A stretch of 64,000 nucleotides of DNA, taken from IMG/VR virus record IMGVR_UViG_3300025844_000001; one strand, 5' to 3'. How positions within the stretch are numbered: position 1 is the first letter of the stretch; each line of letters begins with the position of its first letter. Both the position numbers and the translations under genes were made by a program. The notes beneath the pieces were generated by a model. It was given only the letters and a program-made list of their open reading frames with translations, did not search any database and was not told the DNA's origin. Below are positions 6,887 through 61,103 of this stretch, piece by piece. This stretch comes from an uncultured virus (IMG/VR IMGVR_UViG_3300025844_000001) (lineage: Duplodnaviria > Heunggongvirae > Uroviricota > Caudoviricetes > Demerecviridae).

Positions 6887-7380
6887 TATATAATTTCCTT
6901 TACAAAGTGTTGTTTTCTAATTTCGTTACCAGTATCGTTGGATATGTAGAACATATCTTTCTTTTGTATTCTATTATGTCTAATAATGGTTAACTCACAA
7001 TGTTCACCCTTTACTACGTAAAGGAACATTCTAGTTTTTCTAGCAGGTGTCAGGTCTAGAGAGTGGTATGTTAAACCTGTACCACCTAACTCAAGACAGT
7101 AATAGTTCCAAGCTTTACCATGCGACATTTTACCTCCAAAAGCAGCTTCCAATACATGAGCCATTTCGTGTGGTAAAGTATCTGATATTATAAAATCTAG
7201 GCCAGCTTCTTTGTTAAAACGAATAACGAAAGCATCATCTTCCACATAGTAGATAGCTTCGCCTGCTGCACGACCTTTTAAGTCAAATTTAATAGTAACT
7301 CTATGTTTTAGTTCAAAACCATAGGCTATTAGTATGTATCTCATAAGGTTATTTGCTGCTTCTATTATTTGCTTTTCCAT
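6886..7380 (-). CDS. SprT-like metallopeptidase
   Basis: PHEMAH zincin motif plus HGKAW. Confidence 0.85.
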   Translation of the reverse strand: MEKQIIEAANNLMRYILIAYGFELKHRVTIKFDLKGRAAGEAIYYVEDDAFVIRFNKEAGLDFIISDTLPHEMAHVLEAAFGGKMSHGKAWNYYCLELGGTGLTYHSLDLTPARKTRMFLYVVKGEHCELTIIRHNRIQKKDMFYISNDTGNEIRKQHFVKEII

Positions 7381-7385
7381 TATTC

Positions 7386-7449
7386 GTTCCCTTTCTCAAT
7401 TCTATAAAGCTATTATACGCAAAAAGCACCTCCAATGGAAGTGCTTTTT
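7386..7449 (-). promoter_or_regulatory. Terminator-promoter-leader cassette, identical 64-bp copy at 14709-14772
   Basis: AAAAAGCAC..GTGCTTTTT hairpin fused to CGTATAAT -10 and GAATTGAGAAAGG leader. Confidence 0.8.
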
Positions 7450-7461
7450 CAACGTTACAGC

Positions 7462-8343
7462 TTATTTGATAGCTAAAGAGCGATTAATGTTCTTGATATT
7501 GTTACGAATTTCAGTAAGTGTAGTTTCCTTAAATAGTACACTATCTTCAAAGATAATATCTAAGGCGCCACGTGCTTCCATATCCGCTGATACATTCTCT
7601 ACTAATTGATACATAGTATTATCATTGAAAGACTTAACCATCATAAGACCCTTTGCAGAGTTCTTACCTGAGTCAGTAGCAGGCTCTTTCCATATAGGAG
7701 TCCACTCTCTGTTCCACTCAAACTTAATCGCCGTGGACTTCATCGCAAAGCCATGAGTATCACGGGTAACGTATTGATATGAAAAACTACCAATACCCTG
7801 AACACATGTAGGGATAAACATCTTAGCTTCTAGACGTTCAATGAACTCTGCTGAACGAGCTAACGTAATAGAGTCACCATAGATTGCTCCAATATGTGAG
7901 TCTAGAGTACGATAACCCTCTGTATCAGTAGTACCACCGAAAATATCCCATAAACATTCAATTAATCCTTTAACTTCATGTTTCTCTACGTAACAACCAC
8001 GTTCTATATCAACGAAGCGTCCATCTTCTAACTCATATACTTCATAGTCATATGTGTCTTGTGGGAATGCGCTTGCATGGCCAAGTGCGTCATTTAGGGT
8101 TTCAAACTTAAACTTACTAAATAGTTTGTAACCACAAACAATCTTAACTGGGTCACCGGAGTCAGGACGAATAACTAGTGTACCATCCCGAGCCATGATG
8201 GTATTTTTTAGTAGAGGTAGTCCTATAGATACTACTGACCAAAAGTCATAACTATCTGCTACCATAGATAGTATGCCAGTAGGTGCAACTTCTGTCATTA
8301 ATTCTTTCATATGTAAAACTTCTGCTAGTAACTTATTATCCAT
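7462..8343 (-). CDS. nicotinamide phosphoribosyltransferase-family (NAMPT/Namat), C-terminal half
   Basis: SMVADSYD, VIRPDSGDP, IYGDSIT, GIGSFSYQ..TRDTHGFAMK motifs; own AAGGA RBS. Confidence 0.9.
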   Translation of the reverse strand: MDNKLLAEVLHMKELMTEVAPTGILSMVADSYDFWSVVSIGLPLLKNTIMARDGTLVIRPDSGDPVKIVCGYKLFSKFKFETLNDALGHASAFPQDTYDYEVYELEDGRFVDIERGCYVEKHEVKGLIECLWDIFGGTTDTEGYRTLDSHIGAIYGDSITLARSAEFIERLEAKMFIPTCVQGIGSFSYQYVTRDTHGFAMKSTAIKFEWNREWTPIWKEPATDSGKNSAKGLMMVKSFNDNTMYQLVENVSADMEARGALDIIFEDSVLFKETTLTEIRNNIKNINRSLAIK

Positions 8344-8932
8344 TGTGTCTATCCTTATGTATTAATTTAAATGTACACCCTCTATGGGTCTTTTGTCTAC
8401 CTGTTAAGCACGCACTAACACCAGAAGAGGAGTAACCTTTACTTATTATATCTTTGTGTCCTTTAAGTATATCAATTAGTTTTTCTTCTTTATTGTATAC
8501 TTCTACATCTCCACGATAGTTATGAGCTTTATCTCCAAAAGGATTCTCTTTTAATCCCATATTAATAGCATGTTTCTTATTCCCACTAGAGGTACTCCAT
8601 TCTAGGCTAGATACCCTATTATCTTCTTTTTTACCATAAAGATGATTCACTTCCGGTAGATTTTGTGGGTTAGGTATAAAATGTTCAGCCACTAATCTAT
8701 GCACTTTAAATGTTTTCTGTTTACCCTCTGTACTTAAAGATAAGTACAGATAACCTTTCCTGTCTGAGTTGAACTTAAGAACCTTACCAAGGTACTTTCT
8801 AGTAACTTCCTTACCATTTAGACCACAAATTTGTTGAACTGTCCTAGTTAAGGATCTAACATTTCCTTGGTCAGATACTTGGTAGAGCCCCTCATAACCC
8901 CTAATATCCTTCCAATTCTCTAATCCATTCAT
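8336..8932 (-). CDS. NUMOD4-HNH homing endonuclease
   Basis: WKDIRGYEGLYQVSDQGNVRS (NUMOD4); VHRLVA..VNH..DN..LEW (HNH). Confidence 0.92.
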   Translation of the reverse strand: MNGLENWKDIRGYEGLYQVSDQGNVRSLTRTVQQICGLNGKEVTRKYLGKVLKFNSDRKGYLYLSLSTEGKQKTFKVHRLVAEHFIPNPQNLPEVNHLYGKKEDNRVSSLEWSTSSGNKKHAINMGLKENPFGDKAHNYRGDVEVYNKEEKLIDILKGHKDIISKGYSSSGVSACLTGRQKTHRGCTFKLIHKDRHNG

Positions 8933-9785
8933 TATTAGTTTTTCCTTTATATTTACCTGTATCTCTTAATTCATTCTCAATAGTAGTTATTGCACTAGTA
9001 GCTACTGAGTGTTCAGTAGCGTTAACAGAGGCAAATGTAGGCTCTACATCATGACCAGCAAATGCTCCACCTACGTCAGCTCCGTAATACTTCCAAGCAA
9101 AGATAGCTGCTGGTGTGGTATCAGAACCATAGAATGAGGTTAGGTGGCCGAAACCAATCATACCTGCTGCTACATGTCCAGGTAGTCCACGATAACTAAA
9201 GTCATGACCCATGAATGGAATCATTTCTTTTGCAATACGAGACTTCTCAAACGTGATTAAGTAGTTAAACGCTGTAGTAGCAGAAGTTGTAATAGGCCAA
9301 ATCTCAGCACTAAATTCATCCTCTAAAGCACCTACTAGCCAACCAAAACCTGGTACTGTATTTTGCATTGTTACCGTAGGTACACCATAAGGAACAAAAG
9401 TACCCTCAGGTAAAGCTTTGATACGTAAAGGTAAATACCCTAAGTCATGTAGTGCTTCAATATGGGTAGTATCTACCTGCTTAAATAATGCTCCTTCAAT
9501 AAAGTACTTATACTCGGCAATTATTTCAGCTTTATTACGACAAAAGAAGTCACGATTAAATAGTTTAATTAAGATTTCCTTAACTAAATACTGTGCTCCT
9601 ACTGTTACTACACCATTTAACTTGGTATTAGAGTGCTTACCATGACGTGGTGTTAAATTAGAGTAGTTATAAGCTACTCCCGGTTTTGTAGCGAACTTGT
9701 GAAAGCTCTTATACATATCCTGTAAGGTCATAGGCATAACTTCATGAGATAAACGTTCCATACTATTCATTTTCTGTAAGTTCAT
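8901..9785 (-). CDS. nicotinamide phosphoribosyltransferase-family (NAMPT/Namat), N-terminal half
   Basis: DMYKSFH, LGYLPLRIKALPEG, HDFSYRG, GSDT, ATEHSV motifs. Confidence 0.9.
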   Translation of the reverse strand: MNLQKMNSMERLSHEVMPMTLQDMYKSFHKFATKPGVAYNYSNLTPRHGKHSNTKLNGVVTVGAQYLVKEILIKLFNRDFFCRNKAEIIAEYKYFIEGALFKQVDTTHIEALHDLGYLPLRIKALPEGTFVPYGVPTVTMQNTVPGFGWLVGALEDEFSAEIWPITTSATTAFNYLITFEKSRIAKEMIPFMGHDFSYRGLPGHVAAGMIGFGHLTSFYGSDTTPAAIFAWKYYGADVGGAFAGHDVEPTFASVNATEHSVATSAITTIENELRDTGKYKGKTNNEWIRELEGY

Positions 9786-9788
9786 ATG

Positions 9789-10184
9789 TTAAACCCCTAA
9801 GTATTTTTTAATTAAGTCAATGGCATCTTTACCATTAACAGTTTTATTCTCTGATTTAGCGAAGATATTAAGTGACTTAACTACATCACCCATCTTTTGA
9901 CCCATTGGGTTAGTTTCCATTAAGAACTGGATTACTTCATCATTAGTCATTACTTTAGGTAAGTAGTTACCGATAATACGAATCTCTAGCTCATTTGGTA
10001 CAGCAGACTTTGATAACTGCTTCTGTACTGTAGTTAAAACTTTGATAACAGCTTCATTGCTATGGTCTTTACCTGCTCGGTCAATTTCACCTAATAGGAA
10101 TGAGTAGAACTTAATTCTATCTGCCTTCTTGTGGCGACGCATAACAATTAAGTCACCTTTTAATGTACCGTATACGTTTTCCAT
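9789..10184 (-). CDS. GatB/YqeY-like protein
   Basis: LLGEI..E..II..YLPK.M...E pattern. Confidence 0.55.
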   Translation of the reverse strand: MENVYGTLKGDLIVMRRHKKADRIKFYSFLLGEIDRAGKDHSNEAVIKVLTTVQKQLSKSAVPNELEIRIIGNYLPKVMTNDEVIQFLMETNPMGQKMGDVVKSLNIFAKSENKTVNGKDAIDLIKKYLGV

Positions 10185-10185
10185 T

Positions 10186-10395
10186 TTATTTTCCTTTGTA
10201 ATCTGTTAATGCATCTAATAACATTTTAACTGTTCTTTCTAATTGTGAAACTCTATATTCTAGATTAGATACTTTACAACTTGGCGTATTATCTACTTTA
10301 GGTTTCATTGCTGCTGCTCCATAAGTAGGCTCAGCATCCATTTTAATATGTTTTAATGCTTTAGGTTTCATTGTTTTGTACCTTTCCCAATCCAA
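10186..10395 (-). CDS. hypothetical protein
   Basis: ORF after promoter-like CGTATAAT; start uncertain. Confidence 0.55.
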   Translation of the reverse strand: MDWERYKTMKPKALKHIKMDAEPTYGAAAMKPKVDNTPSCKVSNLEYRVSQLERTVKMLLDALTDYKGK

Positions 10396-10440
10396 TAAAG
10401 CTATTATACGTTAATAATAGCTTTAATGGAAGGAAATTAT

Positions 10441-10701
10441 CTATTTTAGTTGTATAAACGCTGCAATAGAAAGTATATTTAAAATAGGTATACATGCTAA
10501 AATACATGTCCCTAGAGCCAATGAGCCAGCTAGTTTATCCTTTGTAGGGACTTCATTAAATACTTCTGCAAAGTGTAGCTTAATTTGTGGGTCATTATAT
10601 ACTCTAGAAAATTTAGGGTGGTCTGGGTTTAGAAATATCCACCCAGCACAAGCCCATAGTAGTAGTACTGGTAGTATATATAGTAGTATTAAGTAAATCA
10701 T
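10441..10701 (-). CDS. membrane protein (IPILN motif)
   Basis: Two TM segments. Confidence 0.7.
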   Translation of the reverse strand: MIYLILLYILPVLLLWACAGWIFLNPDHPKFSRVYNDPQIKLHFAEVFNEVPTKDKLAGSLALGTCILACIPILNILSIAAFIQLK

Positions 10702-10966: not shown

Positions 10967-11836
10967 TTACTCCTTAGTCCAGTCATAAGCTGCGGCTACA
11001 ACTTCATAGTATTTACTTAATCTAACTTTAGCATTTTTAGCAAAAATACCATGAGTTACTAGTAACGCTGCTCCTGAAAATTCTTGTTCATCACCTGCAT
11101 CACGAGGTTTACCTCTTAGCAATCCTTTTTCTACCAGAGCACTACCTAATCCTAGGAATGTTCCACCACCATCACAAATATCATCTACAATAAGTAACTT
11201 ACCACCCTTACTAATTCTATCTTTAACATACTCAATAGTTAACTGATTAGTAAACTGTATCTCTACGTTAGATAGCATGCCTGTAGAAGTATTTCTAGAC
11301 TTAGTAGCAGTTAAAAGTGGTAGCTCAAGTTTATCCGCAAATTTCTTAGCTTTTTTAAGCGAACCAACATCAGGTGCTAATACCATATCTTGTGAATGGA
11401 AACCACTATGGCTATGGTATACATTAACTAGTAAAGCTTCTTGTGGAATCTCCATAACATTTTTAATCAATGCTAGGGCTACAGGACTATGCGAGTCTGA
11501 TACTACTACCTTGTCAAAGTTCATAGCATTTAGCATATCGGCAAATACTTTAATACCTAAGGCCTCACCTACATTAGCTACTCTATCCTGTCTAGCATAA
11601 GGTATATAAGGCATAGTTAGTACTACTGGTTGTCTAGTGAATACGTTCAATCTATCAATAGCATCTTTAACCATAACTAATTCCATTAGGTCATCTGCTG
11701 TCTTGATAAGAGCTTCCAGCTTAATTTTGTTTAATTTGTAACTTCCCCACTTTACTGTAGTGTGTACTTCCCCACCATTAAAATATACTGTAGGTTTATC
11801 AAATTGAATTGAACTATCTTCTGAAAATTTAATCAT
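10967..11836 (-). CDS. prs: ribose-phosphate pyrophosphokinase-like (Adps-like) protein
   Basis: FNGGE, MPYIPYARQDR, DSHS, APDVG, IVDDICDGGGTF, VTHGIF. Confidence 0.92.
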   Translation of the reverse strand: MIKFSEDSSIQFDKPTVYFNGGEVHTTVKWGSYKLNKIKLEALIKTADDLMELVMVKDAIDRLNVFTRQPVVLTMPYIPYARQDRVANVGEALGIKVFADMLNAMNFDKVVVSDSHSPVALALIKNVMEIPQEALLVNVYHSHSGFHSQDMVLAPDVGSLKKAKKFADKLELPLLTATKSRNTSTGMLSNVEIQFTNQLTIEYVKDRISKGGKLLIVDDICDGGGTFLGLGSALVEKGLLRGKPRDAGDEQEFSGAALLVTHGIFAKNAKVRLSKYYEVVAAAYDWTKE

Positions 11837-40502: not shown

Positions 40503-40964
40503 CTAAACTCCGTAATTATCTAGTTCTTCATTACAAATAGCATCAGCTTTATCATTACCTGTATTTCCTGAATGTCCTTTTACTTTCTTAACTAGTAAGT
40601 TAGCTGGTACTTTCTTCATTAACTCATAAATCTGCTTCCACTGTTCTTGATTTTTAACATCACCACCAGCAGCAGTTTTCCAATCTCTACGAACCCAGCC
40701 AGCTAACCAACTACTACATCCGTTTTGGACGTATGCGGAGTCTGTTAGTATTACTGCATTACTAGCTACATCTGCGTGTCTAGAGCACCAGTCCAAGGCT
40801 TCAATTACCCCTTGTAACTCTGCTTGGTTATTAGTGCCAATAGATAATACTCCAGATTTCTTTCCTTTGTATTCCCCATTTATATATACGGCCATAGCCC
40901 AAGAGGCAGGTGCTGGGATAGAAGGATTACCTCTTCTAGCACCATCCGTGTAAACTTCAATCAT
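40503..40964 (-). CDS. rnh: ribonuclease HI
   Basis: YTDGA, TNNQAEL, TDSAYV, VKGHSG..ND.AD. Confidence 0.95.
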   Translation of the reverse strand: MIEVYTDGARRGNPSIPAPASWAMAVYINGEYKGKKSGVLSIGTNNQAELQGVIEALDWCSRHADVASNAVILTDSAYVQNGCSSWLAGWVRRDWKTAAGGDVKNQEQWKQIYELMKKVPANLLVKKVKGHSGNTGNDKADAICNEELDNYGV

Positions 40965-41646
40965 ATATTATCTCCTGTAAATTATATAATATGTTATTTA
41001 TCTCTAGCATTAAACTATTTTCTTCTATATCAAAAAACTCAGTTATACCATTGTTTACATTATAATTTCTAACTCTGTATTTTTCTAACTTAGTATGGCA
41101 TTCTTTTTCTATAACTAAAGCAGTTCCTTTTGTTATATAAGCTTTAAGTAATACCATTGATTTTGATATATTATTTATTCGTGATTTTAAGGTAGAAGTA
41201 GAATAGGTTATACCTATTTTTATTAACCCATTATCCGTATCTTTTGCTATATACAAAATATCTTGACTAGGTTTACAAGTAGTACAAGTAAACCCATGAC
41301 TTAAAATACTATGAGGTACTATACTACCATTTGTTTTACACTTATTACATGTATAAGGCACTTTAATATGCGCCCCCTCATATCTATATAGTGTTATATC
41401 TATACCTTTATTATTTACTTCTTCGTTTATCTGTTTTAGAGTTTTCTTTACATTATTTGCACACTTAGGACAGCCGTACCCAGATAGTAAATCATTTGGT
41501 CTAGATTCCCAAGAGTGTGAGTCTAATGAACATTTAACTAGTATTTTTGTTTTATTATTGATATATTGTGTACCTAATACTAGGATATTTGGATGTTTAA
41601 CTAGACATTGTCTTTTAAATTCTTCTAATGTCTTTCTTTTAGTCAC
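40957..41646 (-). CDS. putative free-standing homing endonuclease (Zn ribbons plus GIY-YIG/T5orf172-like)
   Basis: GCPKC repeats; LY..KIGIT..IEK..H..GITEFF. Confidence 0.75.
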   Translation of the reverse strand: MTKRKTLEEFKRQCLVKHPNILVLGTQYINNKTKILVKCSLDSHSWESRPNDLLSGYGCPKCANNVKKTLKQINEEVNNKGIDITLYRYEGAHIKVPYTCNKCKTNGSIVPHSILSHGFTCTTCKPSQDILYIAKDTDNGLIKIGITYSTSTLKSRINNISKSMVLLKAYITKGTALVIEKECHTKLEKYRVRNYNVNNGITEFFDIEENSLMLEINNILYNLQEIIYD

Positions 41647-45241: not shown

Positions 45242-46336
45242 CTAACAATCAAAGTCATTGAAGTTAATACCTGTAATATCAATACCTGCTGTAATATAAC
45301 TAGTAACTTCAGTTTCCTGAGGTGCTACTTGTCTATCATCTGTTTTTAACCAGTTATTCATCCAAGGTAAAGGGTTTTTAGTAATGGTTCTTTCTTCTGC
45401 CATTAAACCTACAGTGCGCATACGTTGGTTTGCAATATAGTCAATATAGTTATTGATAATCTTTTCGTTTAAACCAACAACAGCACCTAGAGACATTAAA
45501 TATACTCCCCAGTCTTTTTCTTCTCGCTTTGCAGTTTCAAAGATATAAACAGCTTCGTCATGGCATTCATCAGCAATACGTTTCCATTCTGCTCCACCAT
45601 CACCACGTTGCCAGTGTCTAATAGTCCACTGAGTACCTTTTAAATGTAGTGCTTCGTCTCTAGCGATAAGAGCGATAGTTTTAGCTACACCTTCCATAAT
45701 TTTGCGCTCACCGAATGAGAATGTAATAGCAAAGGATACATAGAAACGAATAGCTTCCAGTGCATTTACAGCGTGCATACATAAGTATAGCGCTTTTTTA
45801 TGAGCATATTCATTGTATCCTGCTGTACGTAGCTCTCTCATACAGTTAAAACGGATTAAGTCATCGTAATAACCACCAATAGAGGTAGCTCGCTTCATGA
45901 TTTCTTCTGTATCAATAATACTATCGAATACTTCTGTAGCAGTAGTTGGTAGTACTGTACGTAAAATATGGGTATAGCTTTCTGAGTGAATAGTCTCACT
46001 AAACGCCCAAGTTTCAATCCAACGCTCATATCCAGGGTCTGAACAGATAGGTAAGAACGCCATAGTTGGCGCTCTACCCTGTACAGAATCTAGTAAGGAT
46101 TGGTATTTTAAGTTGGCTAAAAACATAAAGGACTCATGTGGTTTTAGTTCTGCATAATCTATTACATCCTTCATTAAGTTTACTTCCGAGGGGCGCCAAA
46201 AGAAACCTAATTGCTTGTTAGTTAGCTCCTCAATCACTTTGTGTCTTACTGTTTCTGTGCGGGCCACGTTTAACTCCTCACCAAAAAAGATTGGTTGAGC
46301 TAAGTGGTCTACTTTACTTTTATTAAATACTGTCAC
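45242..46336 (-). CDS. nrdB: class Ia ribonucleotide reductase beta subunit
   Basis: FFWRPSEV, DSVQGR, ETIHS, EAIRFYVSF, RDEALH; likely GTG start. Confidence 0.96.
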   Translation of the reverse strand: MTVFNKSKVDHLAQPIFFGEELNVARTETVRHKVIEELTNKQLGFFWRPSEVNLMKDVIDYAELKPHESFMFLANLKYQSLLDSVQGRAPTMAFLPICSDPGYERWIETWAFSETIHSESYTHILRTVLPTTATEVFDSIIDTEEIMKRATSIGGYYDDLIRFNCMRELRTAGYNEYAHKKALYLCMHAVNALEAIRFYVSFAITFSFGERKIMEGVAKTIALIARDEALHLKGTQWTIRHWQRGDGGAEWKRIADECHDEAVYIFETAKREEKDWGVYLMSLGAVVGLNEKIINNYIDYIANQRMRTVGLMAEERTITKNPLPWMNNWLKTDDRQVAPQETEVTSYITAGIDITGINFNDFDC

Positions 46337-47078
46337 TGTTAAAATCCTCAATTATTTTATTAATTTTATATAAGTCTAAAGTATCAAGTTTAAAAAACTC
46401 TGTACTACCCGCATTAGCTAGTAAAGAATTTACTTGCTTTTCTTTAAATAAACTATGCAAGTACTTCTCTAGTACCCTTGCTTTTTTATCCCTAATATCC
46501 CAGTACTGGACTATTTGTATATCTTTGTGAATTTGTTTAGCTCTTTTACCCACTTTTTGATTATCTTTAGTAATACCTATTTTATATAAATCTTCTTCTT
46601 TCAAGTATAGTAGGTAAACTACAGAATATACTTGGTTAGCACAACTAGGGCATCCCGTCCCATTATGTACTATACATCTGGGTATAGTTGTCCAAATAAA
46701 AGAGCATAGTTTACATTTAAAATCTAAGTAAGTTCTCATTCCGCTGTATATACCTAGCGTCTCTAATCCCTCTGGTAGCATATCTAAGAATTGTTCGTGG
46801 GTTATTTTTAGTAAACCAGAACAATTAGGGCAGCCGTGTCCTTTAAGGAGGTGCAATAGCAATGGGTTCCACTCGTAGCTGCAAGTAGTACATAGGGTAT
46901 GTATAGGATTACCTACCTTAGTGTACATGCCTAATAGTTTTAGGTTGGGATTTAGTTGTTTTACTCTATATTTGGTTATATCTAACTTAATAGAGGCATC
47001 TAAGTTTTGCTTTACTCTTAAAGTAGGTGTGGCGCATTTCGGCCACACCTCGTACCAAGGTTTATCTATATCTTGCAT
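46323..47078 (-). CDS. putative free-standing homing endonuclease (Zn ribbons plus GIY-YIG-like)
   Basis: GCPNC and GCPSC; VYLL..YKIGIT..LEK..H..GSTEFF; between nrdA and nrdB. Confidence 0.78.
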   Translation of the reverse strand: MQDIDKPWYEVWPKCATPTLRVKQNLDASIKLDITKYRVKQLNPNLKLLGMYTKVGNPIHTLCTTCSYEWNPLLLHLLKGHGCPNCSGLLKITHEQFLDMLPEGLETLGIYSGMRTYLDFKCKLCSFIWTTIPRCIVHNGTGCPSCANQVYSVVYLLYLKEEDLYKIGITKDNQKVGKRAKQIHKDIQIVQYWDIRDKKARVLEKYLHSLFKEKQVNSLLANAGSTEFFKLDTLDLYKINKIIEDFNSDSI

Positions 47079-49321
47079 GCCCCACTCTCGCAATCTTCTT
47101 CTTCAATGTTACCGTCAGCATTTCCACCATCATAGGTATTATGATAGTACCAAGTCTTTACACCTAAGTTATAAGAGTAAATTAAATCACCTAGTATAAC
47201 ATTAGCTGGAACCATCCCTGTAGGATAATTACTTGGTCTATAATATGTATTAGCACTAATTGCTTGGTCTACGAACTTTTGCATAATAGCAACTAAATCA
47301 ATATAGCCTCTATTATCTTTCATATCCCATGCGTAATCATATGCGTACATTAAGTTTTCTACATCAGGTACTACTTGACGGTATACACCATCTTTAGAGC
47401 CTTTAGTAGTGATTGGTGAACGTGGTGGCTCAATACCATTTGTTGCATTACTAATTTGACTAGATGTTTCACTAGGCATTAATGCGGTTAATGTAGAGTT
47501 ACGTAATCCATGCTCTAAGATACTTTCTGTTAAGCTAGCCCAGTCATGTTGATAAATTGGATTAATTAACTTATCTACATTCTTATTATAGTTATCTACT
47601 GGTGTGTACCCTTTAGAGTATTTAGTATGACTAAATAGACCACAAGCACCTTTCTCAATAGCTAATTCATTACTAGTAACTAATAAGCTATACTGTAATG
47701 TTTCGAATGTTTTATGAGTATACTCTTTAGCTCCTTGGTCTGCATAACGTAAACCTCGTTTAGCTAAGGCATGAGCAAAGTTAATTACACCTATACCTAG
47801 TGTTCTACGCAATTTATTCTTTAAAGCAGCTGGTACAGCATAGTCCTGATAGTCTAGTAAGTTATCTAGGGCGCGTACTAATACTCTAGAAATCTTTAAG
47901 AACTGGCTTGGAGTCTCTACTAAACCTAAGTTAACTGCGGCTAATGTACATAATGCAATTTCTTCTTCTGGGCTTCCCATTGGTTCTGTAGGTAGTAGGA
48001 TTTCTAAACATAAGTTAGACTGACGTACTGGTGCTAACTCAGGAATAAATACACCTTGTTTAGTACAATTATCTACGTTTTGAATATAGATACGAGCTGT
48101 CTGTGAGCGTTCAGTTGCTAGAGATAGGAATAAATCTAGTGCTGGTATTGTTTTCTTTTTAACTGATGGGTCTTGCTCTAACTGCTCGTATAGCTTAACA
48201 AACTTTTCTTCGCTTTCAAAGAATAGTTTATACAACTCCCCATTAGCTACTTCAGGACTAAATAATGTGATGTTTTCACCTTTAATTAATCTTTTATAAA
48301 ATAAGCCAGAAAGTTGTATACCATAGTCCAGGTTACGTACACGGTTATCATCTGTACCACGGTTATTTTTAAGAACTAGTAAGTTCTCTACTTCTAAGTG
48401 CCACATTGGATAGAATAGTGTAGCAGAACCACCGCGCATAGCTCCTTGACTACAACTCTTAACGGCTGCTGCAAACATCTTGTAGAATGGGATTACACCT
48501 GTATGTGAGGCTTCGCCTCCACGGATAGGTGAGCCTAAGGCTCTTATTGCCCCACCATTAATACCTACACCTGCACGCTTACTGATATACTTTACGATAG
48601 CTGCTGTTGTATCTGTAATAGAATCTAATGAGTCGCCTGATTCTATTAAGCAACATGAGCTGAACTGTCTAGTTGGTGTACGAACTCCACCCATAATAGG
48701 TGATGGTAAACTTCCACGGTTATTTGAAATTTCATCGTAGAAATCAAGTACATAACTTATACGCTTTTCTTTTGGCTCATTAGCGTGTAAACACATAGCA
48801 ATTAGCATAATAGCTATTTGAGGTGATTCATAAATCTTTTTGGTTGTTCTGTCTTGTACTAAGTACTTCTCAGCCCACTGGATTACTGCTGGGTAGCTAT
48901 ACTCTAGGTCACGTTCGTGAATTAGGAAGTCCTCTAGGAAGTCAATCTCCTTTTTGGAGTAATCCTCTAGAATATGTTTATCATACTTACCTAAACTAGT
49001 TAATAGCTTTATATGATTATATAAATGTGGCGGCAAGAACTCCCCAAAGGCTTGTTTACGCATTTGGAAAATCTTTAAACGTGCTGCTACTCTACCATAG
49101 TCGGGGTTATTAAAGTCAACTAAATCATTAGCTGCTCTGATTAATGCGTCGTGTATCTCTGAAGTAGAGGGTAGTTTATCTACCTTAGATGCTGCTGACA
49201 TTAATATTGATGACGCGCATACATCTAAGCCTTCACATGCCCACTCTACTACTTTATTAACTTTCTCTGCAATGAAAGGTTCGGCTTTACCATTGCGTTT
49301 TAATACTTTTTCAAACTTCAA
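47066..49321 (-). CDS. nrdA: class Ia ribonucleotide reductase alpha subunit
   Basis: ATP cone, QFSSC, QSNLCLE, CESGACKI. Confidence 0.97.
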   Translation of the reverse strand: MKFEKVLKRNGKAEPFIAEKVNKVVEWACEGLDVCASSILMSAASKVDKLPSTSEIHDALIRAANDLVDFNNPDYGRVAARLKIFQMRKQAFGEFLPPHLYNHIKLLTSLGKYDKHILEDYSKKEIDFLEDFLIHERDLEYSYPAVIQWAEKYLVQDRTTKKIYESPQIAIMLIAMCLHANEPKEKRISYVLDFYDEISNNRGSLPSPIMGGVRTPTRQFSSCCLIESGDSLDSITDTTAAIVKYISKRAGVGINGGAIRALGSPIRGGEASHTGVIPFYKMFAAAVKSCSQGAMRGGSATLFYPMWHLEVENLLVLKNNRGTDDNRVRNLDYGIQLSGLFYKRLIKGENITLFSPEVANGELYKLFFESEEKFVKLYEQLEQDPSVKKKTIPALDLFLSLATERSQTARIYIQNVDNCTKQGVFIPELAPVRQSNLCLEILLPTEPMGSPEEEIALCTLAAVNLGLVETPSQFLKISRVLVRALDNLLDYQDYAVPAALKNKLRRTLGIGVINFAHALAKRGLRYADQGAKEYTHKTFETLQYSLLVTSNELAIEKGACGLFSHTKYSKGYTPVDNYNKNVDKLINPIYQHDWASLTESILEHGLRNSTLTALMPSETSSQISNATNGIEPPRSPITTKGSKDGVYRQVVPDVENLMYAYDYAWDMKDNRGYIDLVAIMQKFVDQAISANTYYRPSNYPTGMVPANVILGDLIYSYNLGVKTWYYHNTYDGGNADGNIEEEDCESGACKI

Positions 49322-53753: not shown

Positions 53754-54085
53754 TGGAGAAGAAGTGGGGTACTACTCGTGTACCAGATAATGAAAGGTTT
53801 CGTAAGAAAAATACTGGTAAGAAGATTACTGGTAGAGAAGAATACGAAGCCTATGTTAGAAAACTAGAAAGAGTTATCCCTGACGAGGAGTTAAGAGAGT
53901 TAGGGAATAACTTTGGTACTAAACGTAAAGATGTTGACTATGATAATATATGTCGTGTTGTGCCTGCTGATTGGATTAATTCACCACAGTTGCTAGATAT
54001 GAATAAAGAGAACGGCATATACCCAGAACTAATTATAAAGGAAAAATACCATGAATTGCTTGGAAAAGTTACGCGCGCAAAATAA
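53753..54085 (+). CDS. hypothetical protein
   Basis: Coupled ORF. Confidence 0.7.
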   Translation: MEKKWGTTRVPDNERFRKKNTGKKITGREEYEAYVRKLERVIPDEELRELGNNFGTKRKDVDYDNICRVVPADWINSPQLLDMNKENGIYPELIIKEKYHELLGKVTRAK

Positions 54086-54893
54086 TAAGAGTAAACTAAC
54101 TAGTGTAGTAGACTGGAAAGTTAAGTTTAAGGATTACGTTACTGCTAATGGTAATATGAAACGTAGCCTGACCCCCGAACAGAAAACAGAAGTGTTCCAG
54201 TATAGAGTTAAAGATAACTATAATGTACTTGGTACCTTTACAAATAATAAGACTAGAGTATTGTGTGAATGCGTTGTTTGTGATACTAAGATGGAGCTGA
54301 TACCAGAAGTAGTACTAGCAGGTAAGACTCCTTGTCAAGCTTGTGCTGGTAAACTAAAACGTGAAGATACTTCTACCGGAATTGTACCTATAAACTTGAG
54401 AGATAAGTTCCCTGAGCATGTTACCATAAAAGGTATTCACGCGCCTTACCGAGGAGTTTTATGGATAGACATGGATAGGATTAACCGTGAGATTTTCTAT
54501 ATAGTAAAGCAAGCTAATAGAGAGTTATATTCATTTGTTACCCTAGACTTAAAATGGTTTAAAGGTTCCGACCCAGTACTAGCACAATTATATGCTCTAG
54601 GTTGTGAGTATACTAGTGCTACTGCTATGGCAGTATTATATGACGAGATACCTAACTTTGAAATTGGGCATAAAACTTGGGAGGGGTGGGAGCATTCTGA
54701 AAGAAAGTCTTGGCATACGAAGTACGCTGAGGTGATTAAGTACTGTATGGAGAAGCGTTTTAAAAAACGTAGGTATCCACATCTTATGGGGACAGATGAA
54801 AGAGATATACCTTGCTTTTGTTTAACTCCCGAAGATTTAGCGGAGCTTGCTGCTATAAAAGACATTGAGGAAGTATTAGATTGGAAATTATAG
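54051..54893 (+). CDS. Zn-ribbon-containing hypothetical protein
   Basis: CVVC..CQAC. Confidence 0.7.
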   Translation: MNCLEKLRAQNNKSKLTSVVDWKVKFKDYVTANGNMKRSLTPEQKTEVFQYRVKDNYNVLGTFTNNKTRVLCECVVCDTKMELIPEVVLAGKTPCQACAGKLKREDTSTGIVPINLRDKFPEHVTIKGIHAPYRGVLWIDMDRINREIFYIVKQANRELYSFVTLDLKWFKGSDPVLAQLYALGCEYTSATAMAVLYDEIPNFEIGHKTWEGWEHSERKSWHTKYAEVIKYCMEKRFKKRRYPHLMGTDERDIPCFCLTPEDLAELAAIKDIEEVLDWKL

Positions 54894-58887: not shown

Positions 58888-59082
58888 ATGAAAAATACCG
58901 ATAAGTACAGAGTAAAGCTGAGACTTGTAGTTCAAAAAGGACGTAAGTACTCAATGTACGTAGTACAAGAGAAATGTAGCTTATTAGGTATTATTAGCTA
59001 CTGGAAAGATACGGGTACAACTTCTAGGGATGCATCCCATATAAACTACCTAGTTAATAAGATGAACAAGGAATATAAATGA
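58888..59082 (+). CDS. hypothetical protein
   Basis: Promoter plus leader. Confidence 0.65.
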   Translation: MKNTDKYRVKLRLVVQKGRKYSMYVVQEKCSLLGIISYWKDTGTTSRDASHINYLVNKMNKEYK

Positions 59083-60077
59083 AAGACTTAATTGCAAAAT
59101 ACCAAGAAGCTTACTACTTAGGTAATCCCTTGATTACTGACGAACAGTATGATGCTCTTGTTTCCCACAACGAAGATAGCGAAACTAGTATAGGGCCAAC
59201 AGGTGACATAGATCATCTAAATCCTATGTACTCGCTACAGAAGTTCTACCCTTGTCGTGGTGATACATTACCAAATCATGTAGGATGGGTAGAATCCAAT
59301 AAGCTAGACGGTGCTGCTTTAGAGCTAGTATACGAGAAAGTAGGTGTTGATTTATACGTATTAAATCGTATAGTTACTCGTGGTAGTGTAGCTGCTGGTA
59401 TGATAGTTCCGCATATTCGCCATGCCCACTTAAAAATACCAAGTTCTTTTGAACTAAACTCAGTACACGACTTTATCCAAGTTAATGGCGAAGTAGCAGC
59501 TACTAAAGATGTAGATAACGCCCGTAACTTAGCTAGTGGTAAATTACAGTTATCTAGTGATACAGAGTTTGCAGAAGAAGCCGCTAAACTAGGACTTATG
59601 TTCTTTGCCTACAATGTAACTGGTAAAGGTACAGTACCTCTTACAGCTACATATACCCAAGATATGGTAGAGCTTGATAAATTTGGTTTTAATACTGTAC
59701 TGGGAGTACCAGAATTACTAAGTGCAAAACCGATGCTAAAAATTGCATTTGATGGTAGAGTGCTTCGTATGGATGATAATGCTCAGTTTTATAAACTAGG
59801 ATTTACTGCTAAGTTCCCAAGAGGTGCATTCTCGATAAAAGAAGATAAAGAGTTTATGGTAACTACGTTACTATCTATTGAGTGGAATACAGGTAGAACT
59901 GGTAAAGTAGTGCCTAAAGCTATTATTGAACCAATAGAAATTGATGGAGCCAAAGTATCTAAGGCCACTTTAAACAATCCTAAATTTATTGAAGCTATGG
60001 GACTTTATGTGGGTTGTAAAGTGAAGATTATTCGTTCTGGAGAAATTATCCCGTGTATTATTGGGATGGTTGAATAA
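59079..60077 (+). CDS. ligA: NAD-dependent DNA ligase subunit A
   Basis: AYY.G..D..YD, KLDG, GE, RN.ASG, DG.V, GRTG, TLNN, RSGEIIP. Confidence 0.93.
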   Translation: MKDLIAKYQEAYYLGNPLITDEQYDALVSHNEDSETSIGPTGDIDHLNPMYSLQKFYPCRGDTLPNHVGWVESNKLDGAALELVYEKVGVDLYVLNRIVTRGSVAAGMIVPHIRHAHLKIPSSFELNSVHDFIQVNGEVAATKDVDNARNLASGKLQLSSDTEFAEEAAKLGLMFFAYNVTGKGTVPLTATYTQDMVELDKFGFNTVLGVPELLSAKPMLKIAFDGRVLRMDDNAQFYKLGFTAKFPRGAFSIKEDKEFMVTTLLSIEWNTGRTGKVVPKAIIEPIEIDGAKVSKATLNNPKFIEAMGLYVGCKVKIIRSGEIIPCIIGMVE

Positions 60078-60332
60078 CTCCTAACCTAAATTATAAAGTA
60101 ATCTTGACGTTTAGCATTTACTTAGCTATAATATATTTTCTCTTTTGAAGCAATCCACTAAATACTGTGAGGCACAGAAGTTTAAAATATTTCTTTACTA
60201 ATCGATTTATATCAGTTATAATAGTTTTAGAAATTAGGTAATGAGCAGCAAGCGAATAGCAAACCTAAATAGATTAAAAATTTGCTTGACTGGCTTGTCA
60301 CTTAACTAGTATACTAATAAGGAATTAAGAAA

Positions 60333-61103
60333 TTGATTCAAATACCAAAATATTGCCCGTCTTGTGGTGAACTGCTTGAAATGACAGCTACAGAATTATT
60401 CTGTAGAAATACTGAAGATTGTCCTGCTCAGAATACTAAGAGATTAGAGAACTTCACTAAAGTGATGAAGATTAAAGGGTTGGGAGAGAAATCTATTGAG
60501 AAACTATTTGAACATGGATTCATTAGTATTCCTCAATTATACGAAATTACATTAGATGAATTAACCGATATTCTTGGTATCGCCAACGGTACAAAGATAT
60601 ATGACGGAATCATAGCGTCAAGGTCACAAAAGCTAGAGTTATTTATTCAAGGCTTAGGTATTAAATCTATCGCATTATCTTCAAGCAAAATAATTGCAAA
60701 CAAGATTAAGAAGATAGAAGCGCTTAGGTCTCCAGAGTTACTAACTGAATCATTCGTAAAAGAGTTAGGTAAAGTTAAACATGCTAGTCTTGTTAGCTTT
60801 ATTGAAAGTCCTTTATGCGATAGGGTATTAGCTTTAGATCTTGATTTGCAAAGTCCAGTAAGTTTAACAAGTACCACTGCAATTAAAGGGTGTGTTTGTA
60901 TTACTGGCAAATTAAATGACTTTCCTAATCGTGGAGCAGCAGAAGCTTTCTTATTGCCTCTAGGATGGGAATCAAAAACCTCAGTTACTAAAGTAGTAAC
61001 TCATCTTATTTGTGAGGATGACTCGAAGAAGTCAAGTGCATCTTATAAGAAAGCTGTAGCTATGGGAATCCCCATTGTTACTATTAAACAACTAACTTCT
61101 TAA
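60333..61103 (+). CDS. ligB: NAD-dependent DNA ligase subunit B (Zn finger-HhH-BRCT)
   Basis: CPSCG..C..CPAQ, IKGLG, CITGK..SVTK. Confidence 0.9.
   Translation: MIQIPKYCPSCGELLEMTATELFCRNTEDCPAQNTKRLENFTKVMKIKGLGEKSIEKLFEHGFISIPQLYEITLDELTDILGIANGTKIYDGIIASRSQKLELFIQGLGIKSIALSSSKIIANKIKKIEALRSPELLTESFVKELGKVKHASLVSFIESPLCDRVLALDLDLQSPVSLTSTTAIKGCVCITGKLNDFPNRGAAEAFLLPLGWESKTSVTKVVTHLICEDDSKKSSASYKKAVAMGIPIVTIKQLTS

Follow-up and report, generated by a model that had tools for sequence, protein, structure and literature searches.

The Namat gene in the window, i.e. the whole 64,000-nt stretch of DNA that was analysed, is divided by an intron-less HNH endonuclease gene into two reading frames, each with its own start. 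We consider it probable (about 0.78) that the outer frames encode the two chains of a functional Namat and that the split is carried by a homing cassette, the halves and the nuclease being known here from their sequences. The split is not new: at the same site it is already in print for Pectobacterium phage CB7, together with a negative splicing test (PMC7344957), and the window is a further instance, not the first. What is absent from the literature found is the comparative case for a mobile tail–nuclease–head cassette; a search outside the subscription journals returned no paper on the mobility of such a cassette.

In a complete virus record of 116,783 bp, the window makes up the first 64 kb. 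The genome contains a two-part NAD ligase, an origin-binding protein, nrdAB and 21 tRNA matches, and we read the phage as T5-like. Its NAD-dependent DNA ligase is encoded by two genes (window 59079–61103), each with its own PHROG family match; the two-gene form of this ligase is a known T5-type arrangement. Three more endonuclease-like genes (phrog_681/559) are located at window 40957–41646, 46323–47093 and 54051–54893, one of them between nrdA and nrdB.

The Namat locus consists of three ORFs on the minus strand that start in three different reading frames (Table 1). Its layout agrees with what the earlier note had claimed: (i) the HNH gene overlaps the N-half by 32 nt (8901–8932) and the C-half by 8 nt (8336–8343); (ii) the N-half ends soon after ATEHSV (aa 256–261, nt 9020–9003), with its stop 33 residues past this motif; (iii) the C-half resumes before SMVADSYD, which begins at its aa 26; and (iv) both downstream starts have an AAGGA ribosome-binding site (RBS), at a distance of 10 nt from the ATG of the HNH gene and 8 nt from that of the C-half. 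A similar RBS motif is found for 74 of the 106 ORFs of ≥120 aa, so AAGGA is ordinary here. The split is not an assembly error, because the 2324-nt locus stretch recurs in three IMG/VR contigs with 0, 1 and 1 differences, although one of these contigs may be the window's own source.

Table 1. Features of the split Namat locus and its surroundings (window coordinates)
Feature	Position	Strand	Remarks
Namat N-half, 294 aa (P0001)	8901..9785	-	Carries D23, Y25, F196, S197, R199, D222, A256 and the conserved His H259
ATEHSV codons	9003..9020	-	In filled/empty allele pairs, left boundary of the exchanged cassette; intact alleles are presumably cut nearby
C-terminal tail of N-half, 34 aa	8901..9005	-	Predicted helix / small hairpin / short helix
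AAGGA RBS of HNH gene	8943..8947	-	Within tail-coding sequence
NUMOD4-HNH endonuclease, 198 aa (P0002), I-HmuI-like	8336..8932	-	43% identical to CB7_245
AAGGA RBS of C-half	8352..8356	-	Within HNH gene
Namat C-half, 293 aa (P0003), own ATG	7462..8343	-	R59, D61, G156, D157, G185, S186, F187, Y191, T193, R194, D195
GSFSYQYVTRD, Namat selectivity-clamp helix motif	7759..7791	-	Motif definition from PMC12774641
PRPP-synthetase-like gene	10967..11836	-	Expected Adps partner of NARP1; profile/family matches
YqeY-like ORF	9789..10184	-	Directly upstream of N-half; match below Pfam cut-off
Repeated phage promoter-like element, one copy	10381..10411	-	Putative start of the split-gene transcription unit
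Hairpin + T run after C-half	7421..7449	-	Terminator-like by eye; not flagged by terminator scan

The next promoter-like copy is at 7420, right after the hairpin that follows the C-half. This promoter-plus-RBS element has 16 copies genome-wide at ≤6 mismatches (window 7420, 10411, 12728, 14743, 16613 and others), three of which stand close after the same terminator-like hairpin. A sigma-70 promoter scan returned fewer sites than in shuffles (9 versus 19).

The outer ORFs match positions 6–242 and 241–462 of one 465-position NCBIfam nicotinate/nicotinamide phosphoribosyltransferase model, as well as the first and second halves of solved Namat/Nampt structures. Residue roles were taken from PMC12774641 and mapped via an alignment to PDB 9w5x, the numbering of which fits the SpbetaL1 Namat paper. 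The ligand-binding residues are present but divided between the chains: eight are on the N-half (Table 1), and the C-half contributes R59, D61, G156 and D157 plus the clamp motif (aa 185–195). Equivalents of SpbetaL1 D13, Y15, F189, R192, D215, the His, R306, D308, G360 and D361 are present, while A362 is Ser here. The Namat selectivity clamp is a GSX-X-X-TRD helix with aromatics at positions 3 and 7 (PMC12774641), as found in GSFSYQYVTRD, and the Adps-like gene expected within 10 genes for NARP1 is located ~1.2 kb upstream. The locus therefore resembles the NARP1 Adps/Namat pair (bioRxiv 10.1101/2024.02.11.579819; structure PMC12774641) in its nearby Adps-like gene, clamp motif and shared catalytic residues. 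In contrast to the two chains here, the characterised Namats are single chains, and the word 'split' is absent from the bioRxiv main text. An 803-aa Adps–Namat fusion protein was also observed (L161:2071–4482).

The proposal of an NAD-salvage enzyme making NMN/NAD stands for NAD but not for NMN as the main product: because the enzyme is of the Namat type by its clamp motif and Adps neighbour, the expected main product is NAD+ from ADPR-PP. Neither half could presumably function alone, since the catalytic residues are divided. Since intact Namat dimerises, with its active sites at the interface, a working enzyme would take the form (N.C)2.

In CB7 (KY514263), the HNH gene CB7_245 interrupts the nicotinamide phosphoribosyltransferase gene CB7_244/246. 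RT-PCR and Sanger sequencing indicated that CB7_245 is not removed by splicing, while other CB7 introns are spliced, and its authors proposed a two-chain enzyme like Aeh1 NrdA (PMC7344957). One sentence in section 2.6 of that paper places a nicotinamide phosphoribosyltransferase intron, tagged CB7_202, among the spliced ones; we take this to be a slip in the paper, since according to its abstract and table it is nrdA that is spliced, with CB7_245 given as unspliced. CB7 and the window share the enzyme family, a break at the same place (~33 residues past A[ST]EHSV), a homologous tail and C-half start, a NUMOD4-HNH protein (43% identical), overlaps on both sides of the HNH gene and a PRPP-synthetase-like gene upstream. 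By contrast, CB7 is a Certrevirus and the window's phage is T5-like, their halves are only 37–38% identical and they belong to different Namat clades. PMC7344957 calls the CB7 insert an intron and reads the enzyme as Nampt, and the portions of it consulted do not describe the tails or mobility.

The tested genes-in-pieces precedent is the nrdA-a/mobE/nrdA-b arrangement of Aeromonas phage Aeh1, in which the pieces assemble into an active enzyme and the insert-derived tails are needed for activity (PMC3045599); the earlier note already cited this system. As in the window, an intron-less HNH gene splits the active-site residues over two chains, extra tails are present at the break and a dimer of heterodimers is expected (PMC3045599, and Friedrich 2007 via it). 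Two features typical of Aeh1 recur here: the endonuclease gene is inside the host gene without an intron or intein, and the extra break tails are absent from most intact alleles, a minority of which carry related sequence in fused form. Several differences are evident. The host enzyme is different, and the Aeh1 split is described as unique among ~1200 nrdA genes whereas the Namat split is recurrent in many lineages. The mobE RBS is hidden by a hairpin, but no hairpin masks the HNH RBS here (folding z +0.97). The Aeh1 tails are oppositely charged and were shown to be essential. In the window, tail and head each have a charge close to neutral (−1 and −1), which prevents a direct transfer of the Aeh1 charge-pairing model.

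We then compared Namat alleles across phages. Among 119 listed relatives of the N-half, 20 are <400 aa long, and 15 of these 20 end 28–42 residues past ATEHS; 25 C-only proteins were picked among 120 listed relatives of the C-half, all starting with a similar short head. Length and motif served to select these 15 and 25 database proteins, most of which come without DNA context. At the DNA level, 292 fetched loci (a redundant set) comprise 259 intact and 23 split loci, the latter consisting of 13 from this phage, three dropped as artefacts and seven same-site splits; an eighth same-site split (L111) is cut by a contig end. Loci dropped before the count are L168/L170 (poly-G frameshift in a short allele), L115 (internal deletion), the 13 loci of the window's phage, L270, L047, L084, L101 and L103 (partial or at contig ends) and L212 (different site). 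All 80 loci fetched from bacterial genomes are intact.

The content of the split differs among alleles: a sense HNH gene (L195 and L111), an antisense HNH gene (L223 and L249/L288) or an antisense GIY-YIG-like gene (L266), as we take these inserts to be from their motifs. In L136/L175, which are split in the same way, no ORF separates the halves; the spacer is 55 nt long and contains a promoter-like TTGACA-17-TATACT. Other irregular Namat genes were also observed. A second split site occurs inside the clamp helix (L212:4416–4667); the remnant there is short, degenerate and nuclease-like, and the restart is at MALTRD. Two intact Namats (L025:1285–3822 and L045:1081–3489) have in-frame inserts, presumably intein-like from their motifs, in one case immediately ahead of the conserved His motif and in the other within RPDSG. 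A short-loop Namat is broken by an 8-G run in two contigs (L168/L170:3720–3741), which is either a sequencing error or phase variation.

The view that the enzyme is cut at a variable loop holds only in part. In most of the intact alleles examined, the connection at the site is short (234 of 265 distinct junction sequences), and the ~30-residue tail and first C-half helix appear to travel with the endonuclease. The window's tail is homologous to the tails of CB7 and of distant split alleles. A profile of eight window-clade tails scores 36–70 on six of 14 other split tails, including those of the distant L111, L195 and P0092, and reaches a maximum of −0.6 on the 234 short intact junctions. The remaining eight split tails score −14 to 11, five of them belonging to a second type, which is acidic. 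A degenerate DNA pattern for the tail retrieved only the window's phage and three chance matches (6 loci). Some intact proteins (P0012, P0015 and P0026) carry tail-like sequence fused to the head (tail profile 54–63), as do, by inspection, the intact CR3 and Pakpunavirus alleles. In the predicted model of the natural intact P0012 with fused tail and head (pLDDT 95.8), the break site is in a 6-residue linker between helices, after a folded helix–hairpin–helix; a model of the lone N-half has the same tail elements with lower confidence. The long intact alleles could be either the cassette source or re-fusions.

The middle ORF encodes a NUMOD4-HNH protein, and its only PDB match is I-HmuI (1u3e). 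The architecture is NUMOD4 + HNH + NUMOD-like, with HNH_3 and NUMOD-like matches below Pfam cut-offs. Residues N96/H97/N118 align with I-HmuI D74/H75/N96, positions that we take to be catalytic. The protein differs from I-HmuI in the loop after H97, and the nuclease may be weak or dead. It resembles I-HmuI and the free-standing T4 seg/mob endonucleases, which undergo intronless homing (PMC2988022), in architecture, aligned active-site positions and co-conversion-like tracts; unlike them, it is not surrounded by a group I intron and lies inside its presumed target gene, not between genes. A search of viral contigs with the HNH protein returned only the window's phage and one weak match (4 loci). 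Several phages have related free-standing HNH genes in the interval from the Adps-like gene to Namat (L004:1182–1715, L111:438–995 and L376:7971–8528), which are a possible source of the inserted nuclease.

Trees of the N-core, which are unrooted and leave out the tails, place split alleles beside intact sisters in scattered positions, i.e. the split is polyphyletic. In a tree of 132 rows, the 23 split rows need 18 changes, at least 9 of which are forced by strong branches, and in an AU test on 39 rows, the grouping of the 14 same-tail alleles as a single clade is rejected (p 2e-75). Tree shuffle tests are uninformative because the sister rows were picked by hand, and the C-half tree includes some cassette residues. 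We also considered one old split within the long-loop clade, which the trees and the AU test reject.

Allele pairs delimit the exchanged tract. Split L266 and intact L289 share 97.5% identity over 2010 nt; their sequences part at the ATEH codons and come together again within the C-half. The Certrevirus Namat genes are mosaic along their length: the first 773 nt of DU_PP_IV are 95% identical to intact CR3 (CB7: 80%), and its tail, HNH and head are 98–100% identical to CB7. The CB7/DU_PP_IV flanks are far more diverged (dS 0.95 and 0.49 versus 0.03 for the HNH gene), and both phages depart from CR3 ~40 nt downstream of the ATEHSV codons. These tracts fit homing with co-conversion, a concept described for endonuclease homing (PMC2988022), and the tail, endonuclease and head seem to be transferred together as a cassette. 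Mosaic phage recombination by itself can also produce shared tracts. Homing of the endonuclease into intact alleles, as the earlier note suggested, is thus backed by comparative data (L266/L289, DU_PP_IV/CR3/CB7 and split polyphyly).

An alternative that we regard as unlikely, but still worth weighing, is that the two-chain enzyme works while the HNH protein is a passive passenger or cuts elsewhere, the patchy tree being due to ordinary recombination and repeated re-fusion. Related HNH genes do stand free just upstream of Namat (L004, L111 and CB7_243), and both the mosaic Certrevirus genes and unrooted trees, from which the direction of change is unreadable, would suit this explanation. However, the tract of highest CB7/DU_PP_IV identity has the cassette in its middle and short flanks, the pattern of co-conversion (PMC2988022), and unrelated endonuclease types occupy this one site.

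Conservation suggests that the two-chain enzyme is functional. The 8/8 catalytic positions checked on the N-half are invariant in 16/16 split N-halves, and 8 of the 11 C-half positions are invariant in 26/26 C-halves, the other three varying only F/Y, Y/F/L or T/S. In the nearest split relative (P0005/P0125), the halves are 77% and 70% identical to the window's and both are open. The dN/dS values are 0.12 and 0.15 for the CB7 and DU_PP_IV halves, mostly reflecting divergence of intact backgrounds before cassette arrival, and 0.08 and 0.27 for the L136 and L175 halves, from only 5 and 17 changes. Both pairs are outside the window's own lineage, in which post-split selection is indicated indirectly. 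The literature found, outside the subscription journals, contains no experiment on assembly, activity or cleavage for any split Namat.

Gene decay is conceivable because Namat is dispensable on hosts without NAD-depleting defences, NARP1 being important mainly on hosts that carry NAD-depleting systems (bioRxiv 2024.02.11.579819). HNH insertion could then have inactivated a dispensable anti-defence enzyme, with the cassette spreading selfishly whether or not the halves work; recent invasions would keep their residues for lack of time, and the DU_PP_IV and L266 cassettes do look recent. We consider such a dead or dying gene distinctly improbable: each half retains an RBS and start of its own, the window's lineage has stayed split and open through 23–30% protein divergence (P0005/P0125), the tails are conserved as protein between distant lineages, and the endonuclease-free L136/L175 alleles keep both halves plus the promoter-like spacer.

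Restoration of a single frame by RNA splicing is even harder to reconcile with the data. I-HmuI-like HNH genes often reside in group I introns, and a real one is present in this genome's helicase, in which the Walker A motif is interrupted by a group I intron with an endonuclease-like ORF (~68767–69782 of the genome, outside the window; G000:C1, L381). The covariance-model scan proposed by the earlier note gave 0 Rfam matches at E ≤ 10 over 7000–10500. The same scan detected both positive controls, i.e. the helicase intron (RF00028, E 1e-8) and the spliced CB7 terminase intron (E 3e-6), and found nothing intron-like at the Certrevirus Namat split. Folding over the junctions, from 9150 to 8191, gave 0/15 120-nt windows better than z −1.2. 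These results support the reading without a group I intron. Excision of the HNH gene by a cryptic, strongly reduced group I or other intron is thus very improbable: non-coding flanks are absent, conservation of the tail is at the protein level, splicing was not seen for the CB7 homologue (PMC7344957), and antisense and insert-free alleles occur at the same site. The exclusion of an intein likewise holds, given the three frames and a Pfam search with no intein (Hint) domain in either half.

Four aquifer RNA-library runs contain the locus as contigs with no joint inside the split, one contig spanning 7442–12200 unchanged; these contigs are probably DNA carry-over because the runs contain 35–42 kb contigs with flat depth, and they are not taken as a sign of expression or of absent splicing. 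In run X1 (record 3), a related phage has the same two promoter-like repeats (window 7449–10374) joined by 2201 other letters versus 2924, and its contig may hold a shorter or different cassette.

A single full-length protein made by ribosomal bypassing or frameshifting, or by non-intein ligation of the chains, finds a parallel in T4 gene 60, whose bypassing is associated with a mobile element, and in natural alleles with tail and head fused in frame, but it is hardly credible given a gap of ~560 nt with a full ORF inside, a C-half with its own RBS and ATG in each allele for which DNA was inspected, inserts that are wholly different between alleles and the absence of a Pfam intein domain from both halves.

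The genes-in-pieces reading of the earlier note is thus supported by the divided conserved residues, separate starts and RBSs, recurrent same-site splits and unspliced CB7 homologue. We envisage that (i) a single unspliced mRNA would be translated with coupling between the frames; (ii) the two chains would fold together without splicing into an (N.C)2 heterotetramer; (iii) this enzyme would convert Adps-made ADPR-PP and nicotinamide to NAD+, countering NAD-depleting defences; (iv) the HNH protein would nick or cut intact Namat alleles near the ATEHS codons; and (v) repair would copy the cassette, i.e. tail, endonuclease and first helix of the C-half, so that the invader would bring its own stop, restart and folded chain ends.

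In a wider and more tentative proposal, to which we give slightly less than an even chance, tail + endonuclease + head would represent a widespread class of self-neutralising mobile elements, a third route beside introns and inteins. Such an element would replace ~100 nt after the Namat catalytic His with pre-built chain ends that let the two halves fold together. It would home between unrelated phages, swap its nuclease (sense HNH, antisense HNH or GIY-YIG-like), could lose it, leaving a promoter-like spacer, and could re-fuse to give the longer loop of intact Certrevirus and Pakpunavirus Namats.

In the literature found, Aeh1 NrdA is the only experimentally working enzyme after an intron-less endonuclease split. 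Namat would be a second case, amenable to a simple assay, and its filled, empty, nuclease-free and fused alleles all occur in nature, some of them in the cultured phages CB7, DU_PP_IV and CR3; tail origin and cassette homing are therefore directly testable in this natural allele series. NARP1 surveys that demand a full-length Namat will miss split alleles, which are also natural split-enzyme designs. If the wider proposal is true, this anti-defence gene is a battleground of phage–phage gene conversion.
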